From: Candidatus Saccharimonadota bacterium
GTDB taxonomy: Bacteria; Patescibacteriota; Saccharimonadia; Saccharimonadales; Saccharimonadaceae
NCBI GenBank assembly: GCA_017515205.1
Contig: JAFWHN010000005.1
Location: forward strand, 13-64,012
Length of the DNA stretch: 64,000 bases
Reading direction: 5' to 3'
Part shown: positions 747 to 59,765 of the stretch, piece by piece
Numbering within the stretch: the first letter of the stretch is position 1
How the letters are laid out: each line of letters begins with the position of its first letter
The notes under the pieces: model-generated
The model's database searches: none
What the model was told of the DNA's origin: nothing
What the model saw: the letters and a program-made list of their open reading frames with translations, nothing else
Made by a program: the position numbers and the translations under genes

Positions 747-1793
747 CTAAGAAAGCAACTTACAGACTAAACTTACAATCAAAGCCTTTTCTTTTGGCTC
801 ACTCTCCGCTATCAAAAGCGCAATTGCCGTCAGTGCTCGGTCGCTAATTTTTGTCTCACCTTTTTCCGTCAAATGGCAATCATTTAAAGTCAAAAACAGC
901 ACAAATAAAAGCGCGCCAATTCTCTTATTTCCGTCATAAAACGGATGATCTTTAATCACGAAATACAGTAAATTCGCAGCCTTTTCTGGTACGCTCGGGT
1001 ACAGTTCCTTACCATCAAAACTCTGAAAAATTGCCGCCAGATTCCCTTCAAAACTCCCATTTCGCTCTTTACCAAATAAATCCGATCCCCCCACATTCTC
1101 CCGTAATTTCTCCACGGCTGTGGTACACATTTCCACGGTTAATTCCTTAATTCGCCGTTTTTTACTCATAAAGGAAAGGTCGATATACCCATCATCATAT
1201 TCCTCTAGTGTCTTGAAACTTCCGGCGTATTTCGATATCACCTCCAGCACACCATTTGCTTCGCCCGCATCTAGCTCATTTCTCGCCGTCAATCGTCTCA
1301 CTAGGCTCATCATTTCTTCTACGTCATGTAGTTTTTTCACTTCTCCGTTTTCATTTAGCGCACTCAGCCGTCTTTCGTTGACTACCACACCATCCGTCAC
1401 AAATTTTTTCAAAACGTTCGTCGCCCAAATTCGGAAGTTCGTCGCTTTTTTCGAATTTACGCGGTAACCTACCGAAATAATTACATCCAGATTAAACAAA
1501 TCAACAGCCCGTCTTACCACTCTCGAACCTTCTTTTCGCACTACGAAAGTTTTCTTCATGGTCGGTTTTTGAACCTGTGCATTTTTTGCACAAGTTGGCT
1601 CTCTCTCTAACTCGCCCTCCTTGTAAATATTGTTGACGTGTCTCACTATTACGGTTCTATCTACGCCAAAAATACTAGCCATCTGCTCATAAGTCGCCCA
1701 AATCGTTTCATTTTTTGCATCGATATCAAAAACCACGTCCCCCTGCAGCCCCTCGTAAATTTCAATTCTCTTTTCTGGATTATCCTCTGCCAT
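747..1793 (-). CDS. RhuM-family DNA-binding domain fused to a Fic/Doc domain
   Basis: N-terminal ETIWATYEQMASIFG...YNLD-like VIISVGYRVNSKKATNFRIWA (RhuM); C-terminal HPFYDGNKRIG Fic motif. Confidence 0.85.
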   Translation of the reverse strand: MAEDNPEKRIEIYEGLQGDVVFDIDAKNETIWATYEQMASIFGVDRTVIVRHVNNIYKEGELEREPTCAKNAQVQKPTMKKTFVVRKEGSRVVRRAVDLFNLDVIISVGYRVNSKKATNFRIWATNVLKKFVTDGVVVNERRLSALNENGEVKKLHDVEEMMSLVRRLTARNELDAGEANGVLEVISKYAGSFKTLEEYDDGYIDLSFMSKKRRIKELTVEMCTTAVEKLRENVGGSDLFGKERNGSFEGNLAAIFQSFDGKELYPSVPEKAANLLYFVIKDHPFYDGNKRIGALLFVLFLTLNDCHLTEKGETKISDRALTAIALLIAESEPKEKALIVSLVCKLLS

Positions 1794-1859
1794 ATGATTC
1801 TCTATTATTTGCCCTCATTATACCACATAAAAAAAGCCCTCACACCAATGAGGTTTATT

Positions 1860-1922
1860 TGGCAAAAGAGAGGATTTGCATCGAGCGTAGCGAGATTCGA
1901 ATCTCGCTTTTTGTGAAAAAAA
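1860..1922 (-). repeat. Degenerate copy of the tRNA-Ser 3' end plus hairpin motif
   Basis: tggcaaaagagaggatttg (1860) vs tRNA tggcggaagagagaggattcg (1923), followed by catcgagcgtagcgagattcgaatctcgc. Confidence 0.8.
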
Positions 1923-2012
1923 TGGCGGAAGAGAGAGGATTCGAACCTCCGAACGGGTTGCCCCGTCACACGATTTCGAGTCGTGCGCCTTCAACCACTC
2001 GGCCACTCTTCC
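1923..2012 (-). tRNA. tRNA-Ser(CGA)
   Basis: GGAAGAGTGGCCGAGTGG...GCACGA-CTCGAAA-TCGTGT, long variable arm, GGTTCGAATCC, encoded CCA. Confidence 0.97.
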
Positions 2013-2280
2013 ACCTCCAATTATATCATTTATCCACTCTAATCACAAATCGTACGATTTCCCACAAAATAATTAAAATCGTACGATTTTAAACTTTTAC
2101 ACTCAAATTTGTCCTTTCCAAAAAGCGCAAAAAAGTAATTTCTACAACAATTTTAAAAAATATGTTATAATAAAGATGTCACCTCACGGTGATGCTCATT
2201 TAATTTCTAGGTGGATGCTTAAAAACATCCACATTTGCACGAGCCGACCCTAAAGGTTGGTAGTGTACCATCATTAATTT

Positions 2281-17305: not shown

Positions 17306-17352
17306 ATAAAAATGACTAAATTAAGTAGGATTCGCATCAGATAAAGTGGGAT
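17306..17352 (-). repeat. Third, degenerate tRNA-Gln 3'-end/hairpin unit (left half)
   Basis: tgactaaattaagtaggattcgcatc vs unit at 18612 tggctagtttgagcaggattcgcatc (first 22 nt match 17/22). Confidence 0.7.
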
Positions 17353-17377
17353 ATCTCAAGTCTAATGAAACCCCTAG

Positions 17378-18460
17378 TTAAGTTTTATCTTTTAAAAATA
17401 CTTTTCGCATAGACGGAAGCCGTATTTTTGCTAACTCTACCATGCTGTAAACAGATATTGACACTACGAATGTACCAACATAAAGCATAATCATTTTTGT
17501 AGTCACCGACAAATAATCATTCAAATATAGCACAATTACTTCATTTACTACTTGATGGAATAAGTAAAAACAAAGCGATATTTTTCCTAGGAAATCAAAC
17601 GGCCAAAAACGAATCTTCGATTGTAATGTTTTCCCTGATAGCAATAATGCTAAAGTCAACATAAAGAAGAAAATAACATTAAACGAGTATAATCTGTCCT
17701 CAAGCACGAGCATACGATTGTTCGTCCATAAAAATATCAAGCTGATGCCAAAACATAATAACTCTGCTATCGATAAGAAGACTATCCAAACTTTTCGAAA
17801 ATCTAGTTTTTTAATATATTCACTTAATACATAAACAATTGCGCCCATACTTAAGCCAGCCAGTGAGCGTAAAAGCGTAGTTGTATCAACACTACTAAAA
17901 GTAGCAAAGCCTAAATAATATGTTAAACAAAAAGGAACAATTAAGAAAAAGAGAAATGTTTTATGTTTTGATTGGCAAAATGTACAAAAAATCGGGTAAA
18001 TCACAACTACTGCGGCTAAATACCATGTCAGTCCAAGTGCTCCACCCCCCTGTGTATTTAAGAGCGTTAATTCCAAAACCATTCTCTTGAAAAAACCGAG
18101 CAGCTCTTCTAATGAGTTAAAATCTAGGTAAATAAATTTAACTAAATACATTAATAACACGGCTATAATCGTGTAAGGCAAGAACACCTTAAATTTTTTC
18201 CAAGTATATTTCGCCGCTTCCTTACATTGTTCATCAAAACTTTTTTCTTCATATTTTTTATTTGCAAAATGTTTAACCGTAAAATAGCCAGTTAGCATAA
18301 AGAACAATTCAACGAACAAAAACGCTCCAGCGAAATGAAAGACGGAAAAATTTTCCTGGTATCGTATGTACGGTGAGTGATACCAGATAATGAAAATGCA
18401 AGCTATAAAACGTAACAATTCAACCACACTAATGGGCCTGTTTTCTTTATTCTTCTTCAT
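17378..18460 (-). CDS. Acyltransferase-3 (OafA/YrhL-like) membrane O-acyltransferase
   Basis: VVELLRFIA, VELFFMLTGYF, WYLAA, LGKISLCFYLFH; ~10 TM helices; AT-rich. Confidence 0.88.
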   Translation of the reverse strand: MKKNKENRPISVVELLRFIACIFIIWYHSPYIRYQENFSVFHFAGAFLFVELFFMLTGYFTVKHFANKKYEEKSFDEQCKEAAKYTWKKFKVFLPYTIIAVLLMYLVKFIYLDFNSLEELLGFFKRMVLELTLLNTQGGGALGLTWYLAAVVVIYPIFCTFCQSKHKTFLFFLIVPFCLTYYLGFATFSSVDTTTLLRSLAGLSMGAIVYVLSEYIKKLDFRKVWIVFLSIAELLCFGISLIFLWTNNRMLVLEDRLYSFNVIFFFMLTLALLLSGKTLQSKIRFWPFDFLGKISLCFYLFHQVVNEVIVLYLNDYLSVTTKMIMLYVGTFVVSISVYSMVELAKIRLPSMRKVFLKDKT

Positions 18461-18567
18461 CTAACCTCCCATAAAAAAAGAGACAATCATTCTACAATTA
18501 TCATCTCTCAAATTACCTCCACTTACGGTTATTATAACGAATAAGTAGCATAATATCAAGCACACAT

Positions 18568-18688
18568 TGAGATCCGAATCCTCGTTTTTTGATTTTTTAT
18601 CTTATAAAAAATGGCTAGTTTGAGCAGGATTCGCATCGAACGAAGTGAGATCCGAATCCTCGTTTTTTAATCTTTTGTGAAACAAAAA
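18568..18688 (-). repeat. tRNA-Gln-linked ~77-bp tandem repeat units
   Basis: tgagatccgaatcctcgtttttt at 18568 and 18646; tggctag at 18612 and 18689. Confidence 0.88.
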
Positions 18689-33916: not shown

Positions 33917-34855
33917 CTATTTTGTTTCACTGTGGAATTTTTCATGCACCTCTTTAAGGTGCGTGTCTGTCACGTGCGTATATATTTGCGTTGTTGAAAT
34001 ATCTGCATGACCTAGCATTGATTGTACTGCCCTCAAATCCGCTCCGTTCATCAGTAGATCAGTCGCAAACGAATGCCTCAGAGTATGCGGCGAAACGTGC
34101 TTAGTAATACCCGCAAGCCGGGCATATTTATCGATAATCCTTTCTACTGACCTCGCCGTCATTCGTCGATAATCACCCGATGTATCTGCCGTTTGCAAAT
34201 TCCGTGAGTTATTTAAAAACAGCGCTGGCAGGGAATCAGTGCGAGCGTCCAAATAATCTCTCACTCGGTCCGCACAAGCCTCCGAAATAAAAATTGGCCG
34301 ATCTTTTGAGCCCTTACCACGCACCATAAATTCTCGTCTTTCCAAATTAATTGAATCACGATTTAGCCCTACCAACTCTGATACTCGTAACCCTCCCGAA
34401 TACAACAGCTCAATGATAGCTCGGTCTCTTAGCCCCGACTCGGTGGATGTGTCCACTTGCTCTAACATTTCTTCCACCTCGTCAAAATGCAAAAACGTCA
34501 CTTGTTTCCTAATCACTCTCGGCAAATCCACTAGTGACGGATCTAATGATTTAATCTCCCTTCGTGCCAAGTATTTCAGAAACCCTCTCAATGCAATCAA
34601 ATGATATGCCTGTGTAATCACTTTCAAATCATCCTCGCCGTTTTTTGAACCGTAGCGGTTGAGCTTCAGGCGGTATTTTCTTAAGAGTTCTTTCGTAATA
34701 TCGCTCGGTTTAATCTCATCTTTATTTAGAATCTCCTGCGCAATTTCCAAAAACCTCTCTAAATATAATCGATAATTTTCAACGGTCTTCTTGCTGCGCC
34801 CCGCTTCCACCTCGAGATGTTCCAAAAAATCATTGATTAAATCGTAAATATCCAT
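33917..34855 (-). CDS. xerC: XerC/XerD-family tyrosine recombinase
   Basis: GLRVSE, GKGSK, HTLRHSFAT, LGHADISTTQIYTH; start corrected to 34855. XerC vs XerD cannot be resolved. Confidence 0.85.
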   Translation of the reverse strand: MDIYDLINDFLEHLEVEAGRSKKTVENYRLYLERFLEIAQEILNKDEIKPSDITKELLRKYRLKLNRYGSKNGEDDLKVITQAYHLIALRGFLKYLARREIKSLDPSLVDLPRVIRKQVTFLHFDEVEEMLEQVDTSTESGLRDRAIIELLYSGGLRVSELVGLNRDSINLERREFMVRGKGSKDRPIFISEACADRVRDYLDARTDSLPALFLNNSRNLQTADTSGDYRRMTARSVERIIDKYARLAGITKHVSPHTLRHSFATDLLMNGADLRAVQSMLGHADISTTQIYTHVTDTHLKEVHEKFHSETK

Positions 34856-39835: not shown

Positions 39836-41701
39836 ATGCAAGGATTAAAAGACCAACTTAAAAAAATTATTCAAGATTTGTATGGCCTCGATTTTGATCC
39901 CGAAGTTACTCCTGCTCCCGAGAATGTCACTGCCGATTATTCTACCAATGCACCCTTGAAACTTGCCAAAGAACTCCATAAATCTCCAATGATAATAGCA
40001 GAGGAGTTACAGAAAGCTTTTGTGAGCGTTCGCGACGACGGGAGCGAACGACGAAGCGCCGCCCGTAACGACGGGCCGGCGCGAGGAGGCGAGCAAAAGG
40101 TTTCTATAACTCCTCCTGGATTCATCAATTTCACTTTATCCGATTCTTACCTAGCAGAAAAGATTGATAGTTTATCAACTGATTTTGATCAATCTATTGT
40201 CTCTAATGATTACAAAGGTAAGACTGTGATTTGCGAGTTCAGCGATCCCAATCCTTTCAAAGTCCTTCACGTTGGTCACCTTTATACTAGTATCGTCGGT
40301 GACGCCATTTCAAATCTTTTTGAATATGCCGGCGCTAAGGTCATCCGCGCCAATTTCGGTGGTGACGTCGGTCTTCACGTGGCTAAAACCATGTATGTTC
40401 TACGGCAAAAGAATCCCAAAGAGATTCAAATCGAAGACATCTCCAGATGTTATGTCGAAGGTACCGCTCTTTATGAAGAAGATGAAAAAGCTCACCAAGA
40501 AATTACCGAGCTTAACAAAGAGATTTACAAAATCAATTCCGAAAACCTTCACGATTCTGACCTCGCTGAGTTATACTGGCAGGGCAGGGAATTATCTTAC
40601 GATTATTTCAAGAAGTTTTATGAGTCTATCGGCGTCAAGTTTGATAAGTATTATCCTGAATCTACCGTTGCGGCTCTTGGTCTAAAAACTGTCAAAGAAC
40701 AGCTAGAAAAAGGCGTCTACGAAAAAAGTGAAGGTGCTGTGATTTTCAACGGTGACAAATATGGCCTCCATACTCGCGTCTTTATTAATAGAGAAGGTGT
40801 CCCTACTTACGAAGCTAAGGATGTGGGTCTAATCTTCACTAAATGGCAAGATTATCATTTTGACAAATCTGTCGTCATTACTGGTTCCGAGCAGCTTGAT
40901 TACATGAAAGTGGTCTTAAAATCGGTCGAACAATACGCGCCCGAATTAGTTGAGCGCACCAGCCATTTAACTCACGGCCTTGTCAAACTCCCTGGTAATG
41001 TCAAAATGTCTTCTCGAAAAGGTAATTTCTTAAAAGCCGTTGACGTTCTCGATATGGTCAAAAACGAGCTAAAAACTGAGTATAACTCCGATGACGAGAT
41101 TGTCTCTCTCGCTGCTACCAAATATGCTTTCCTGAAATATAAAATGGGCGGCAACATTATCTTCGATCCGAAAGAATCCGTCAAAATGACCGGCAATTCC
41201 GGCCCATACCTGCTATATTCCGCCGTTCGTGCCGAAAAGATTCTTGAAAAGACGCAGGAGGGGCTCAAAAACAAGACACGAGTGAGCATTCACGACAACG
41301 GGAGTGAACGACGAAGCGCCACCCGTGACGACCGTCGTAGGAGCCGAGAAGACGAAAAGCTTGCTTTTCGTGTCGAGGCCACGCCCGACGGACGACCTAT
41401 GGTCGACGGGCCGGCGCGAGGAGGCGAGCGAGGGCTTGTTTTTGAGCCCTCCGAACGTGACTTATCTAAAAAGCTGTTGGACTATAAAGGAGTCTTGCAG
41501 GTCGCCGTTGCCGAAATGGCTCCGCACAAATTAGCGAATTACTTATACGAACTTGCCCAAACCTTTAGCCGTTTCTACGAGAGCTGTCCTGTAGCTGGCA
41601 GCGATCGAGAAGAGGAGCGCTTAAAGCTCGTCCAAGTCTACCTAGACACCATGACTCACGGTCTTAAAATTTTAGATATTAATATTCCGGAGGAAATGTA
41701 A
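39836..41701 (+). CDS. argS: Arginine--tRNA ligase with two in-frame repeat insertions
   Basis: PGFINF, DPNPFKVLHVGH, KMSSRKG, GNSGPYLLY; start after TATAAT + 6 nt. Confidence 0.95.
   Translation: MQGLKDQLKKIIQDLYGLDFDPEVTPAPENVTADYSTNAPLKLAKELHKSPMIIAEELQKAFVSVRDDGSERRSAARNDGPARGGEQKVSITPPGFINFTLSDSYLAEKIDSLSTDFDQSIVSNDYKGKTVICEFSDPNPFKVLHVGHLYTSIVGDAISNLFEYAGAKVIRANFGGDVGLHVAKTMYVLRQKNPKEIQIEDISRCYVEGTALYEEDEKAHQEITELNKEIYKINSENLHDSDLAELYWQGRELSYDYFKKFYESIGVKFDKYYPESTVAALGLKTVKEQLEKGVYEKSEGAVIFNGDKYGLHTRVFINREGVPTYEAKDVGLIFTKWQDYHFDKSVVITGSEQLDYMKVVLKSVEQYAPELVERTSHLTHGLVKLPGNVKMSSRKGNFLKAVDVLDMVKNELKTEYNSDDEIVSLAATKYAFLKYKMGGNIIFDPKESVKMTGNSGPYLLYSAVRAEKILEKTQEGLKNKTRVSIHDNGSERRSATRDDRRRSREDEKLAFRVEATPDGRPMVDGPARGGERGLVFEPSERDLSKKLLDYKGVLQVAVAEMAPHKLANYLYELAQTFSRFYESCPVAGSDREEERLKLVQVYLDTMTHGLKILDINIPEEM
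40022..40094 (+). repeat. GC-rich palindromic element, copy 1 (in argS)
   Basis: 73 nt; near-identical to 41282-41332 joined to 41408-41429. Confidence 0.9.
41261..41449 (+). repeat. Palindromic element copy 2 with nested 75-nt insert and 15-bp terminal inverted repeats (in argS)
   Basis: gggctcaaaaacaag (41261-41275) and cttgtttttgagccc (41435-41449) are perfect inverted repeats. Confidence 0.9.
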
Positions 41702-59601: not shown

Positions 59602-59765
59602 CGGCGTATTCACACGTTCGACGAGGCTCGCACCGAGCCGCAGTCGAGATCCGAATCTCTCTTTTTGATATTTTTTTCGTAAAAAAAAATGGCGGATCCG
59701 CACCGAAGGTTCGAGCTTTGCTCGACGAGGCTCGAACTCGCGACCGCTTTTTTTCGTAAAAAAAA
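59602..59765 (-). repeat. Two degenerate tRNA-Asp 3'-end copies with hairpin inserts
   Basis: tggcggatcc at 59690 and 59766; acgaggctcg occurs three times; gagatccgaatctc motif near 59646. Confidence 0.88.

Follow-up and report, generated by a model that had tools for sequence, protein, structure and literature searches.

The tRNA-linked repeats (TLRs) of Escherichia coli (Egan and Landy 1978; Rudd 1999; both as summarised in PMC8144298) number 22 at ten loci and have been known since 1978 without an accepted origin or function (PMC8144298). Three of them, situated between two terminators of rrn operons, give rise to small RNAs that bind Hfq and CsrA; these RNAs, RrA, RrB and RrF, are the TLRs between the terminators of rrnA, rrnB and rrnD (PMC8144298). 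Here, we compare with these repeats a short element found behind the tRNA-Ser(CGA) gene of Candidatus Saccharimonadota bacterium (assembly GCA_017515205.1), at positions 1860-1922 of a stretch of 64,000 nucleotides of contig JAFWHN010000005.1 that was analysed as a whole and is referred to as the window. The element, termed the Ser unit, is a partial copy of the tRNA-Ser 3' end joined to a hairpin, and it is one old, decayed member of a genus-specific family of tRNA-linked hairpin repeats. In layout, the closest known kind of element is the E. coli TLR, also called RtT.

In the K-12 tyrT/tyrV sequence, tyrV is followed by three copies of a 178-bp unit, and another copy separates tyrT from tyrV. 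Every one of these units ends in AATCCTTCCCCCACCACCA, a 19-nt direct copy of tRNA positions 58-76, and holds, ~100 nt upstream of that copy, GGGGAAGGAT, the reverse complement of positions 59-68. Given this succession of antisense copy, structured insert and direct copy to CCA, the three-part layout is common to both systems. Like the E. coli TLRs (178-bp tyrT/tyrV repeats, RtT RNA, rttR, RF00391), the units described here immediately follow a stable-RNA gene and share its orientation, carry an 18-21-nt copy of its 3' end that runs to CCA, and form tandem arrays. They differ in having no sequence or Rfam similarity to the E. coli repeats, in being 60-80 nt rather than ~100-180 nt long, in an antisense arm that abuts a tiny constant palindromic core, and in cores that occur in one Saccharibacteria genus. 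Furthermore, the last 18-19 bp of a TLR are identical to the 3' end of the upstream gene, a feature that the family as a whole shows (see the copy identities below), whereas the Ser copy is diverged over its last 19 nt (16/19 with a 2-nt gap). At gathering score, Rfam returned only four tRNAs in the window and no match to the RtT RNA model (RF00391); over positions 1820-1930 nothing better than E = 2 was obtained, and the RtT model gave no match at E up to 10.

RrA, RrB and RrF lie between a first and a second terminator and close with a copy of the preceding gene's 3' end, an arrangement matched by many of the compact units described below. By contrast, the E. coli RNAs are found behind 5S rRNA, show conservation throughout the Enterobacterales and bind Hfq/CsrA, whereas the units here lack GGA motifs and have a high turnover, and the Ser unit has no first terminator hairpin. 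As short non-coding hairpin repeats that multiply within a lineage, the units also resemble REP/BIME sequences (RAYT) and the Rickettsia palindromic elements; REPs, however, show no link to tRNA 3' ends and contain no copy of the site they occupy, and no RAYT/Y1 transposase is present here. No paper joining Saccharibacteria, tRNA gene, hairpin and repeats was found in the literature searched, and a mobilome preprint that mentions rttR contained nothing on mechanism.

The unit behind tRNA-Ser(CGA)

The source genome comprises 650 kb in 9 contigs, with 40% G+C and 46 tRNA genes, and is 90.7% complete. Since tRNA-Ser is encoded on the minus strand, the hairpin and the copy lie downstream of the tRNA in its own sense. 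In the order of that strand, the locus contains the following features:

2020-2048, minus strand: sigma-70-like promoter, TTGTGA-17-TATAAT with TG, 5' of tRNA-Ser (consensus scan only)
1923-2012, minus strand: tRNA-Ser(CGA) with encoded CCA (ARAGORN; Rfam tRNA, 59.1 bits)
1908-1922, minus strand: spacer TTTTTTTCACAAAAA, T7-CAC-A5, straight after the tRNA-Ser CCA
1898-1907, minus strand: left arm (head) GCGAGATTCG of the Ser unit, remodelled, in perfect pairing with the left half of the core
1889-1908, both strands: perfect 20-nt palindrome AGCGAGATTCGAATCTCGCT, predicted dominant hairpin of the Ser unit
1879-1897, minus strand: conserved E-type core, A, ATC-TC-GC, TAC, GC-TC-GAT, G
1860-1878, minus strand: right arm and diverged direct copy of tRNA-Ser positions 56-76, CAAATCCTCTC--TTTTGCCA, ending in CCA
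1828-1853, minus strand: intrinsic-terminator-like hairpin CCTCATTGGTGTGAGG followed by T7
747-1793, minus strand: RhuM/Fic-DOC family gene, downstream of the Ser unit

On the minus-strand reading, the hairpin block GCGAGATTCG-A-ATCTCGC-TAC-GCTCGAT-G (1907-1879) is followed by the tRNA 3'-end copy CAAATCCTCTCTTTTGCCA (1878-1860), by AATAAA and then by the terminator-like hairpin. The unit begins 1 nt past the tRNA-Ser CCA, shares its strand with the tRNA and lies upstream of the terminator, within the tRNA-Ser transcription unit, with no first terminator hairpin in front of it. It is probably transcribed as the 3' trailer of tRNA-Ser and then trimmed off; no evidence of a function of its own was seen. 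An initial sequence-only reading of this DNA had reported a copy of the 3' ~19 nt of tRNA-Ser at a distance of 63, and this was borne out: the period from CCA to CCA is 63 nt, and alignment of the copy with the last 19 nt of tRNA-Ser gave 16 matches, 1 mismatch and a 2-nt gap, a score reached by 2 of 5000 shuffles of the 150-nt downstream region. Just 40 nt separate tRNA-Ser from the copy, and no island cargo lies between the direct repeats. Past the terminator, a TGnTATAAT -10 element, read by eye, precedes the RhuM/Fic-family gene.

Spacers of the type T-run/CAC/A-run were also observed behind other tRNAs and repeat units of the genus. The form CCA-TTTTT(G)TTTCACAAAAA (T-run, CAC or ACG, A-run) occurs at 1908-1922, 18672-18688 and 59748-59765 of the window, and also at loci L009, L053 and L062. 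The recurrent spacer seems either to move together with the units or to reflect a widespread design of tRNA trailers.

The Ser unit belongs to the E-type units, as it carries the core pattern ATC-T[CT]-NC-(3-5 nt)-GN-TC-GAT-R, continued by C[GA]A... of the T-loop copy, behind a tRNA. It is nevertheless a worn example. The identity of its copy (15/21 ungapped) is among the lowest of 44 distinct units compared; the right arm has changed G57 to A, and the acceptor part has lost 2 bases and gained 2 C-to-T changes in comparison with relatives. In the family the left arm is complementary to the right arm, so that the two close one long hairpin. This complementarity is absent from the Ser copy, and its loss is read as decay or remodelling of a true member. 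The head GCGAGAT pairs instead with the left half of the core, ATCTCGC, at 8/8 positions (1-7/8 in 14 relatives), which yields the perfect palindrome at 1889-1908; the perfection of this palindrome had been recognised from the sequence alone, but its length is 20 nt and not 18. In structure predictions, the resulting 8-bp hairpin supplants the family fold in sense RNA (-14.8 kcal/mol, z = -2.8), in sense DNA and in plus-strand DNA. Plus-strand RNA alone is predicted to prefer the long fold with GA/GA and a GUA loop (-17.6, z = -2.0). For intact relatives, the long hairpin is predicted on both strands with similar energies. A hairpin that folds back onto the T-arm copy, as initially proposed for this site, is therefore a fair description of intact relatives but, here, of plus-strand RNA only. 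An acceptor-stem (minihelix) reading, in which AAAAAG/CTTTTG could pair at this locus, was rejected, as relatives have no general 5' partner for the 3' strand of the acceptor.

The repeat family in the genome and the genus

The 170 nt behind every tRNA of the source genome were inspected for second 3'-end copies. Approximately 12 of 46-47 tRNAs were found to be followed, at 50-170 nt, by another copy of their own 3' end, namely Ser-CGA, Ser-GGA, Ser-GCT, Gln-TTG, Asp, Tyr, Lys-TTT, Gly-TCC, Arg-CCG, Arg-TCG and Glu-CTC, together with a second tRNA-Ser(CGA), truncated, with which contig C3 begins. Four core patterns combined gave 7 distinct genome sites, each of which is located 20-39 nt past the 3' end of a tRNA, although this zone accounts for just 0.53% of position-by-strand space; the anticipated association with tRNA 3' ends is thus absolute in this genome. 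With at most 1 mismatch allowed, GAGATYCGAATC gave 8 matches against 0.71 expected. The regular expression offered with the sequence-only reading proved narrower when run over the whole genome, recovering the Ser and Gln sites and no others. The recurrence of the motif at tRNA-Gln (a full unit and the left part of a second) and at tRNA-Asp had been correctly noted, and these sister units within the window are as follows:

18612-18662, minus strand: tRNA-Gln(TTG) sister unit, CGAGGATTCG-G-ATC-TC-AC-TTC-GT-TC-GAT-G-CGAATCCTGC...CCA
18568-18584, minus strand: left arm and left core half of a second Gln unit
~17310-17337, minus strand: right half GATGCGAATCC of the second Gln unit with a decayed tRNA-Gln copy, beyond an inserted gene
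~59690-59747 and 59625-59661, minus strand (within 59625-59747): two tRNA-Asp(GTC) sister units

The second Gln unit is split at the tip of its hairpin by a whole gene (window 17306-18590, minus strand), which has its own promoter-like TTGATA...TATAAT.

To place these units in a wider context, tRNA-Ser(CGA) loci and core matches were collected from 201 congeneric genomes. Two cores predominated. A compact core, GGATTCG-G-ACC-TTC-GGT-G-CGAATCC, was found in 35 of the 201 genomes (69 matches at no more than 3 mismatches), the reversed control giving 0. The E-type core, ATC-TC-GC-(3-5 nt)-GC-TC-GAT-G, was found in ~41 of the 201 and was tRNA-linked wherever a tRNA could be called; the chance background of this search amounted to ~10 matches in coding regions and 7 control matches. 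At least 14 tRNA species are followed by units (Ser-CGA/TGA/GCT, Gln-TTG/CTG, Arg-CCT/CCG/TCG, Lys-CTT/TTT, Glu-CTC, Leu-TAA, Tyr and Val-CAC). Both cores are confined to the genus, as neither was recovered from 216 other genera of the same order. A strict pattern of arm, arm and CCA gave 1 unrelated match in 300 genomes of these genera, and a looser palindromic pattern gave mostly chance matches without tRNA linkage in 400 genomes of the phylum.

The anatomy of the family was derived from the 44 distinct units with a called tRNA. In the same orientation as the tRNA in front, a unit is made up of a spacer, an antisense left arm, a short palindromic core of constant sequence and a right arm that leads into a direct copy of positions 56-76 of the local tRNA, up to CCA. 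The 21 nt that follow the core are identical to those positions in 25/44 units and show 1 difference in 8 more (at least 20/21 in 33/44), and the CCA end is in register in 36/44. In 10 of the 44, the post-tRNA spacer is repeated after the copy too (e.g. L042, L064 and L055), and in L042 the duplication extends past the T-run; the repeated spacer points to tandem duplication of the 3' end and terminator, the hairpin marking the junction.

The left arm reverse-complements the T-loop at positions 56-62, and in the family it may extend along the 3' side of the T-stem as far as position 65. In compact units this arm is exactly 7 bp long: Watson-Crick pairs are formed in 25-32 of 32 units at positions 56-62 and in 8 of 32 at the next position, 63. 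Pairing is poor in E-type arms, where it is seen in 8-10 of 16 at positions 59-60. Arm sequence changes with the T-loop of the local tRNA, occurring as GGATTCG/CGAATCC, GGAGTCG/CGACTCC, GGACTCG/CGAGTCC and CGATTCG/CGAATCG, so that covariation is seen as TA/GC/CG at position 59 and GC/CG at position 62. Pair counting over 27 distinct sequences, gathered with a near-palindromic pattern, gave 94.4% of cells paired and 4 pairs with 10 cells changed on both sides; covariation as strong was obtained in 0 of 500 shuffles. By contrast with the arms, the 11-nt middle is foreign to the local tRNA: tRNA-Arg has C52-G53-T54, and its units retain GGT.

The strand on which the hairpin might matter was considered from its loops, pairs and energies. 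Mini-hairpins of the d(GCGAAGC) type, with a GNA loop and tandem sheared G.A pairs, have reportedly been described by Hirao and co-workers, and the plus strand of the Ser unit resembles them in GC-GTA-GC flanked by GA/GA; the plus-strand string ATC-GA-GC-GTA-GC-GA-GAT is present exactly as first read. The family differs, however, in that its loops, among ~41 E-type cores, are TNC (GNA on the other strand) in 14, other triloops in 3 and tetraloops in 24, and the GNA triloop has to be given up as a hallmark. Compact units carry a UNCG loop on the tRNA-sense strand. Given that UNCG is the reverse complement of C-GNA-G, the loop is uninformative on which strand matters. In a wobble test of the seven-pair arm, 7 G.U versus 6 A.C pairs gave no strand preference. 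Folding of both strands as RNA and as DNA (Vienna energies) likewise gave no strand preference. The opposite-orientation cores described below, the ambiguity of the loop, the pairing counts and the energies together mean that a special single-stranded-DNA motif is neither established nor refuted by these data.

Units are gained and lost at orthologous sites. At tRNA-Ser(CGA), the unit is present in some genomes and absent from others, and its type and number vary. An empty locus (L014) and a filled locus (L018) have the native terminator in common; the filled one carries a spacer-hairpin-copy block that separates CCA from that terminator. Tandem arrays of up to 5 units are found, with a period of 62-79 nt, and the copies range from perfect to badly decayed. 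The succession of tRNA-Ser(CGA), E-type unit and RhuM/Fic gene is shared by the source genome and G044, G047, G161 and G090; G011 has the RhuM/Fic gene without a unit. In each genome, the copy matches that genome's own tRNA variant (CCTTT versus CCTCT), which argues for repeated re-creation or gene conversion.

Several individual loci depart from the common arrangement. Two orphan units with different core types and tRNA-Ser(CGA) copies occur in G050 (L041, contig C33) with no tRNA within 3 kb, and the tRNA-Ser(CGA) of G050 sits on another contig. In G207 (L038), the copy in a unit behind tRNA-Gln(CTG) matches the tRNA-Gln(TTG) 3' end better than the local tRNA (17/21). The E-type core is inverted relative to the tRNA in L087 (G091) and L079 (G195), reading CATCGAGC-GAA-GCGAGAT on the tRNA-sense strand. 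In the source genome, C3:1-123 (L001/L051) starts inside the second tRNA-Ser(CGA), the variable arm of which differs from that of the window gene; a compact unit with a perfect 21-nt copy follows, and the flanks match a three-unit array of G043 (L040). Either the gene is present twice, or the assembly includes a second strain. 'Simple' units that lack a foreign core were found at C3:6740-6817 and at L028, L032 and L014. They are perfect palindromes that are loop-less or have a 1-2-nt loop (GGATAA/TTATCC, that of the source genome, with the slash marking the centre; GGATA-AA-TATCC; GGAT-T-ATCC), and these lie just 5' of an 18-nt copy that starts at A59.

Further observations concern other tRNAs of the source genome. 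The CCA of the tRNA-Tyr unit (C9:191652-191726) abuts base 1 of tRNA-Thr, so that RNase P cleavage of tRNA-Thr would free an RNA ending in the copied CCA. Behind tRNA-Arg(TCG) (C2:77758-77992), a 168-nt branched hairpin insert ends in a 1-mismatch copy of the tRNA's own 3' end and is followed by a fragment resembling the 3' end of tRNA-Arg(GCG); hairpins of the form AAATATCCAAAGC...GCTTTGGATATTT, similar to this insert, lie behind tRNA-Lys(TTT) and tRNA-Ala(TGC). At window 40421-40432, GAGATTCAAATC matches the arm/core motif with 1 mismatch inside the arginyl-tRNA synthetase region. In another family of the phylum (G801, L115), tRNA-Ser(GGA) is followed by a long structured insert ending in a copy of the tRNA's own 3' end, i.e. 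a TLR-like unit with an unrelated core.

Origin of the units

Candidate enzymes and origins were examined in the 90.7%-complete source genome. Neither an RVT_1 (PF00078) reverse transcriptase nor an m1A58 methylase (GCD14/TrmI, PF08704) was found there, and an origin as retro-copied tRNA ends, which would require a reverse transcriptase and an m1A58-type stop, was rejected on this ground. Y1_Tnp (PF01797) is absent from the source genome and present in 9/201 congeneric genomes, which do not track the unit-bearing ones; with the Y1 (HUH) transposase absent here and rare in the genus, mobilisation of the REP/RAYT or IS200/IS605 type was likewise discarded. The whole genome holds one tyrosine recombinase (a Phage_integrase match, window ~33962-34495, minus strand). 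An integrase att scar was dismissed, as the 40 nt between tRNA-Ser and the copy contain no cargo, the sole tyrosine recombinase is ~32 kb off and the core occurs at 14 tRNA species. A resemblance of the right arm GGTGCGAATCC to the XerC arm of dif was also considered; no unit-like dif-like site was found within 8 mismatches, and the idea was dropped.

We put at about even the chance that the units are DNA-level repeats, spread via short homology in the T-loop, rather than conserved genes, and that they are of the TLR kind. Each tRNA gene and both arms of a unit contain the near-universal T-loop sequence, which would serve as a landing pad when units are seeded and spread, whether through template switching or through short-homology recombination. 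The nascent strand, or the recombination event, would leave the local terminator spacer and copy the head and core of another unit; left junctions shared between units before the arm (TTTTTTAGTTGG, GTAC and TTTTTC) point to such descent. Re-entry into the local tRNA gene at CGAATCC would then re-copy positions 56-76, often together with the terminator spacer. The arms would stay complementary by descent, donor and recipient having the same T-loop type, perhaps aided by palindrome correction. Unequal recombination would build the arrays, and mutation would subsequently erode the units.

Several points weigh against this explanation. No copying event was seen, and the mechanism is suggested by the anatomy of the junctions. 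In most single units the copy ends exactly at the mature CCA, which the explanation does not obviously account for and which fits an origin or function at the RNA level better than a pure DNA process. Left arms match unusual T-loops (Val, Tyr and ACTCC types), a match that is accounted for only by the assumed palindrome correction. The near-palindromic pattern with which the covariation sequences were gathered favours pairing. A purine-purine mismatch (G.G or A.G) lies between arm and inner stem in 66/69 units, and core orientation is biased by ~33 to 2; both features could reflect selection on structure.

The exact CCA boundary, the orientation bias and this mismatch keep three other readings in play. 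In the first, the units are functional RNA elements of the tRNA 3' trailer that take part in 3'-end processing, act as a decoy or sponge for tRNA-3'-end factors, or yield a small RNA, along the lines proposed for RrA, RrB and RrF of E. coli. Through read-through or co-transcription, such an RNA would consist of the hairpin and a single-stranded, tRNA-like ...NCCA tail. Its plausibility derives from the position of the unit within the tRNA transcription unit, ahead of the terminator, from the many units that lie between two terminators as in E. coli rrn operons, from the exact CCA end in 36/44, and from the tRNA-Tyr unit, where RNase P would release a CCA-ended RNA at base 1 of tRNA-Thr. Hairpin covariation, the strong orientation bias of the core and loops that fit UNCG on the sense strand agree with it, as does the processing of E. 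coli RrB, which binds Hfq/CsrA (PMC8144298). We nonetheless consider this role rather unlikely, given the high turnover with presence and absence at orthologous loci, the many decayed copies (the Ser unit included), the pairing of E-type arms in just 8-10/16 at positions 59-60, the lack of a G.U excess over A.C, the existence of inverted cores, the restriction of the cores to one genus and the loss of the family fold from the Ser copy. A different role, as a folded single-stranded DNA or duplex recombination site or scar comparable with integron attC or CTX-phage attP, would have a recombinase recognise the inverted arms with their mismatched core; the units would then be either attachment sites for elements inserting at tRNA T-loops or the footprints of such elements. 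The segment from T-loop to CCA is the usual identity block of T-loop-targeting integrases, and the copy spans precisely this segment. The units further recall attC in outline, with an outer stem of 7 bp, then a conserved mismatch, an inner stem and a tip that varies, and in strand asymmetry, the asymmetric mismatches being accompanied on the Ser plus strand by tandem G.A and the GTA loop. The whole gene in the hairpin tip of one tRNA-Gln unit, the variable region behind tRNA-Ser(CGA) with its accessory RhuM/Fic gene, and the orphan units would also be accommodated. However, judged by the tyrosine-recombinase count, the genome has a single, Xer-like recombinase and no integron integrase, and it has no Y1 transposase; the units show no dif-like similarity, are not cassette boundaries and have arms that are copies of the tRNA T-loop. 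Classical core sites of tyrosine recombinases are unlike the 7 + 11 + 7 or 11 + 3 + 11 arm/spacer geometry of the units, which at 60-80 nt are tandem, have identical spacers and, with one cargo case only, carry no cargo. On balance, a recombination site seems quite unlikely.

An RNA-templated origin would fit the exact boundary at the mature CCA: a break behind the gene would provide a DNA 3' end, to be extended by ~18-21 nt on the abundant mature tRNA from its CCA, snap-back would make the antisense arm, and joining would be followed by spread through recombination. The 'simple' units, in which identity runs from A59 (18 nt) and loop-less palindromes lie just 5', bear a signature of synthesis rather than of a foldable hairpin, and E. 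coli TLRs also occur behind 5S rRNA (PMC8144298). This origin is very unlikely, as the genome has no reverse transcriptase and no m1A58 methyltransferase, the constant cores common to different loci cannot arise by independent snap-back, 10/44 units duplicate DNA past the transcript-relevant part, and nothing would make the neighbouring tRNA the template. The imperfection of the Ser copy (16/19 with a gap) could also suggest chance similarity or an assembly artefact. Such an account is scarcely credible: 2/5000 shuffles reach the alignment score, the core is identical to that of dozens of units in other assemblies, and every match in the genome is tRNA-linked. The occurrence of the same layout in dozens of independently assembled genomes also argues against misassembly.

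Implications for tRNA-linked repeats

A broader proposition, which we regard as unlikely though of interest, is that the repeats described here and those of E. coli are products of one unrecognised general process for which the T-loop/3' end of stable RNAs is the landing pad. The route may be RNA-templated extension of a broken DNA end with snap-back, or use of the hairpin by the single Xer-like recombinase. If this were true, the recombinase route would also let genes land in a hairpin tip, as at tRNA-Gln, and the clean boundaries of arm, core and copy would make the 45-year-old TLR question directly testable.

By itself, the Ser copy adds little, being a worn example. For annotation, a warning follows from the family to which it belongs: tRNA-like 3' fragments behind tRNA genes of Saccharibacteria are repeat units, and not pseudo-tRNAs or prophage att sites. 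The genus offers hundreds of small, cleanly bounded units with arms that track the T-loop and constant cores of 11-19 nt; orthologous sites can be compared with and without a unit, and tandem arrays, orphan units and cores in inverse orientation are also available. Compared with the 22 copies of E. coli, this is far better material for the study of repeat origin and of any bearing that the repeats have on tRNA 3'-end processing or genome plasticity in ultra-small symbionts.

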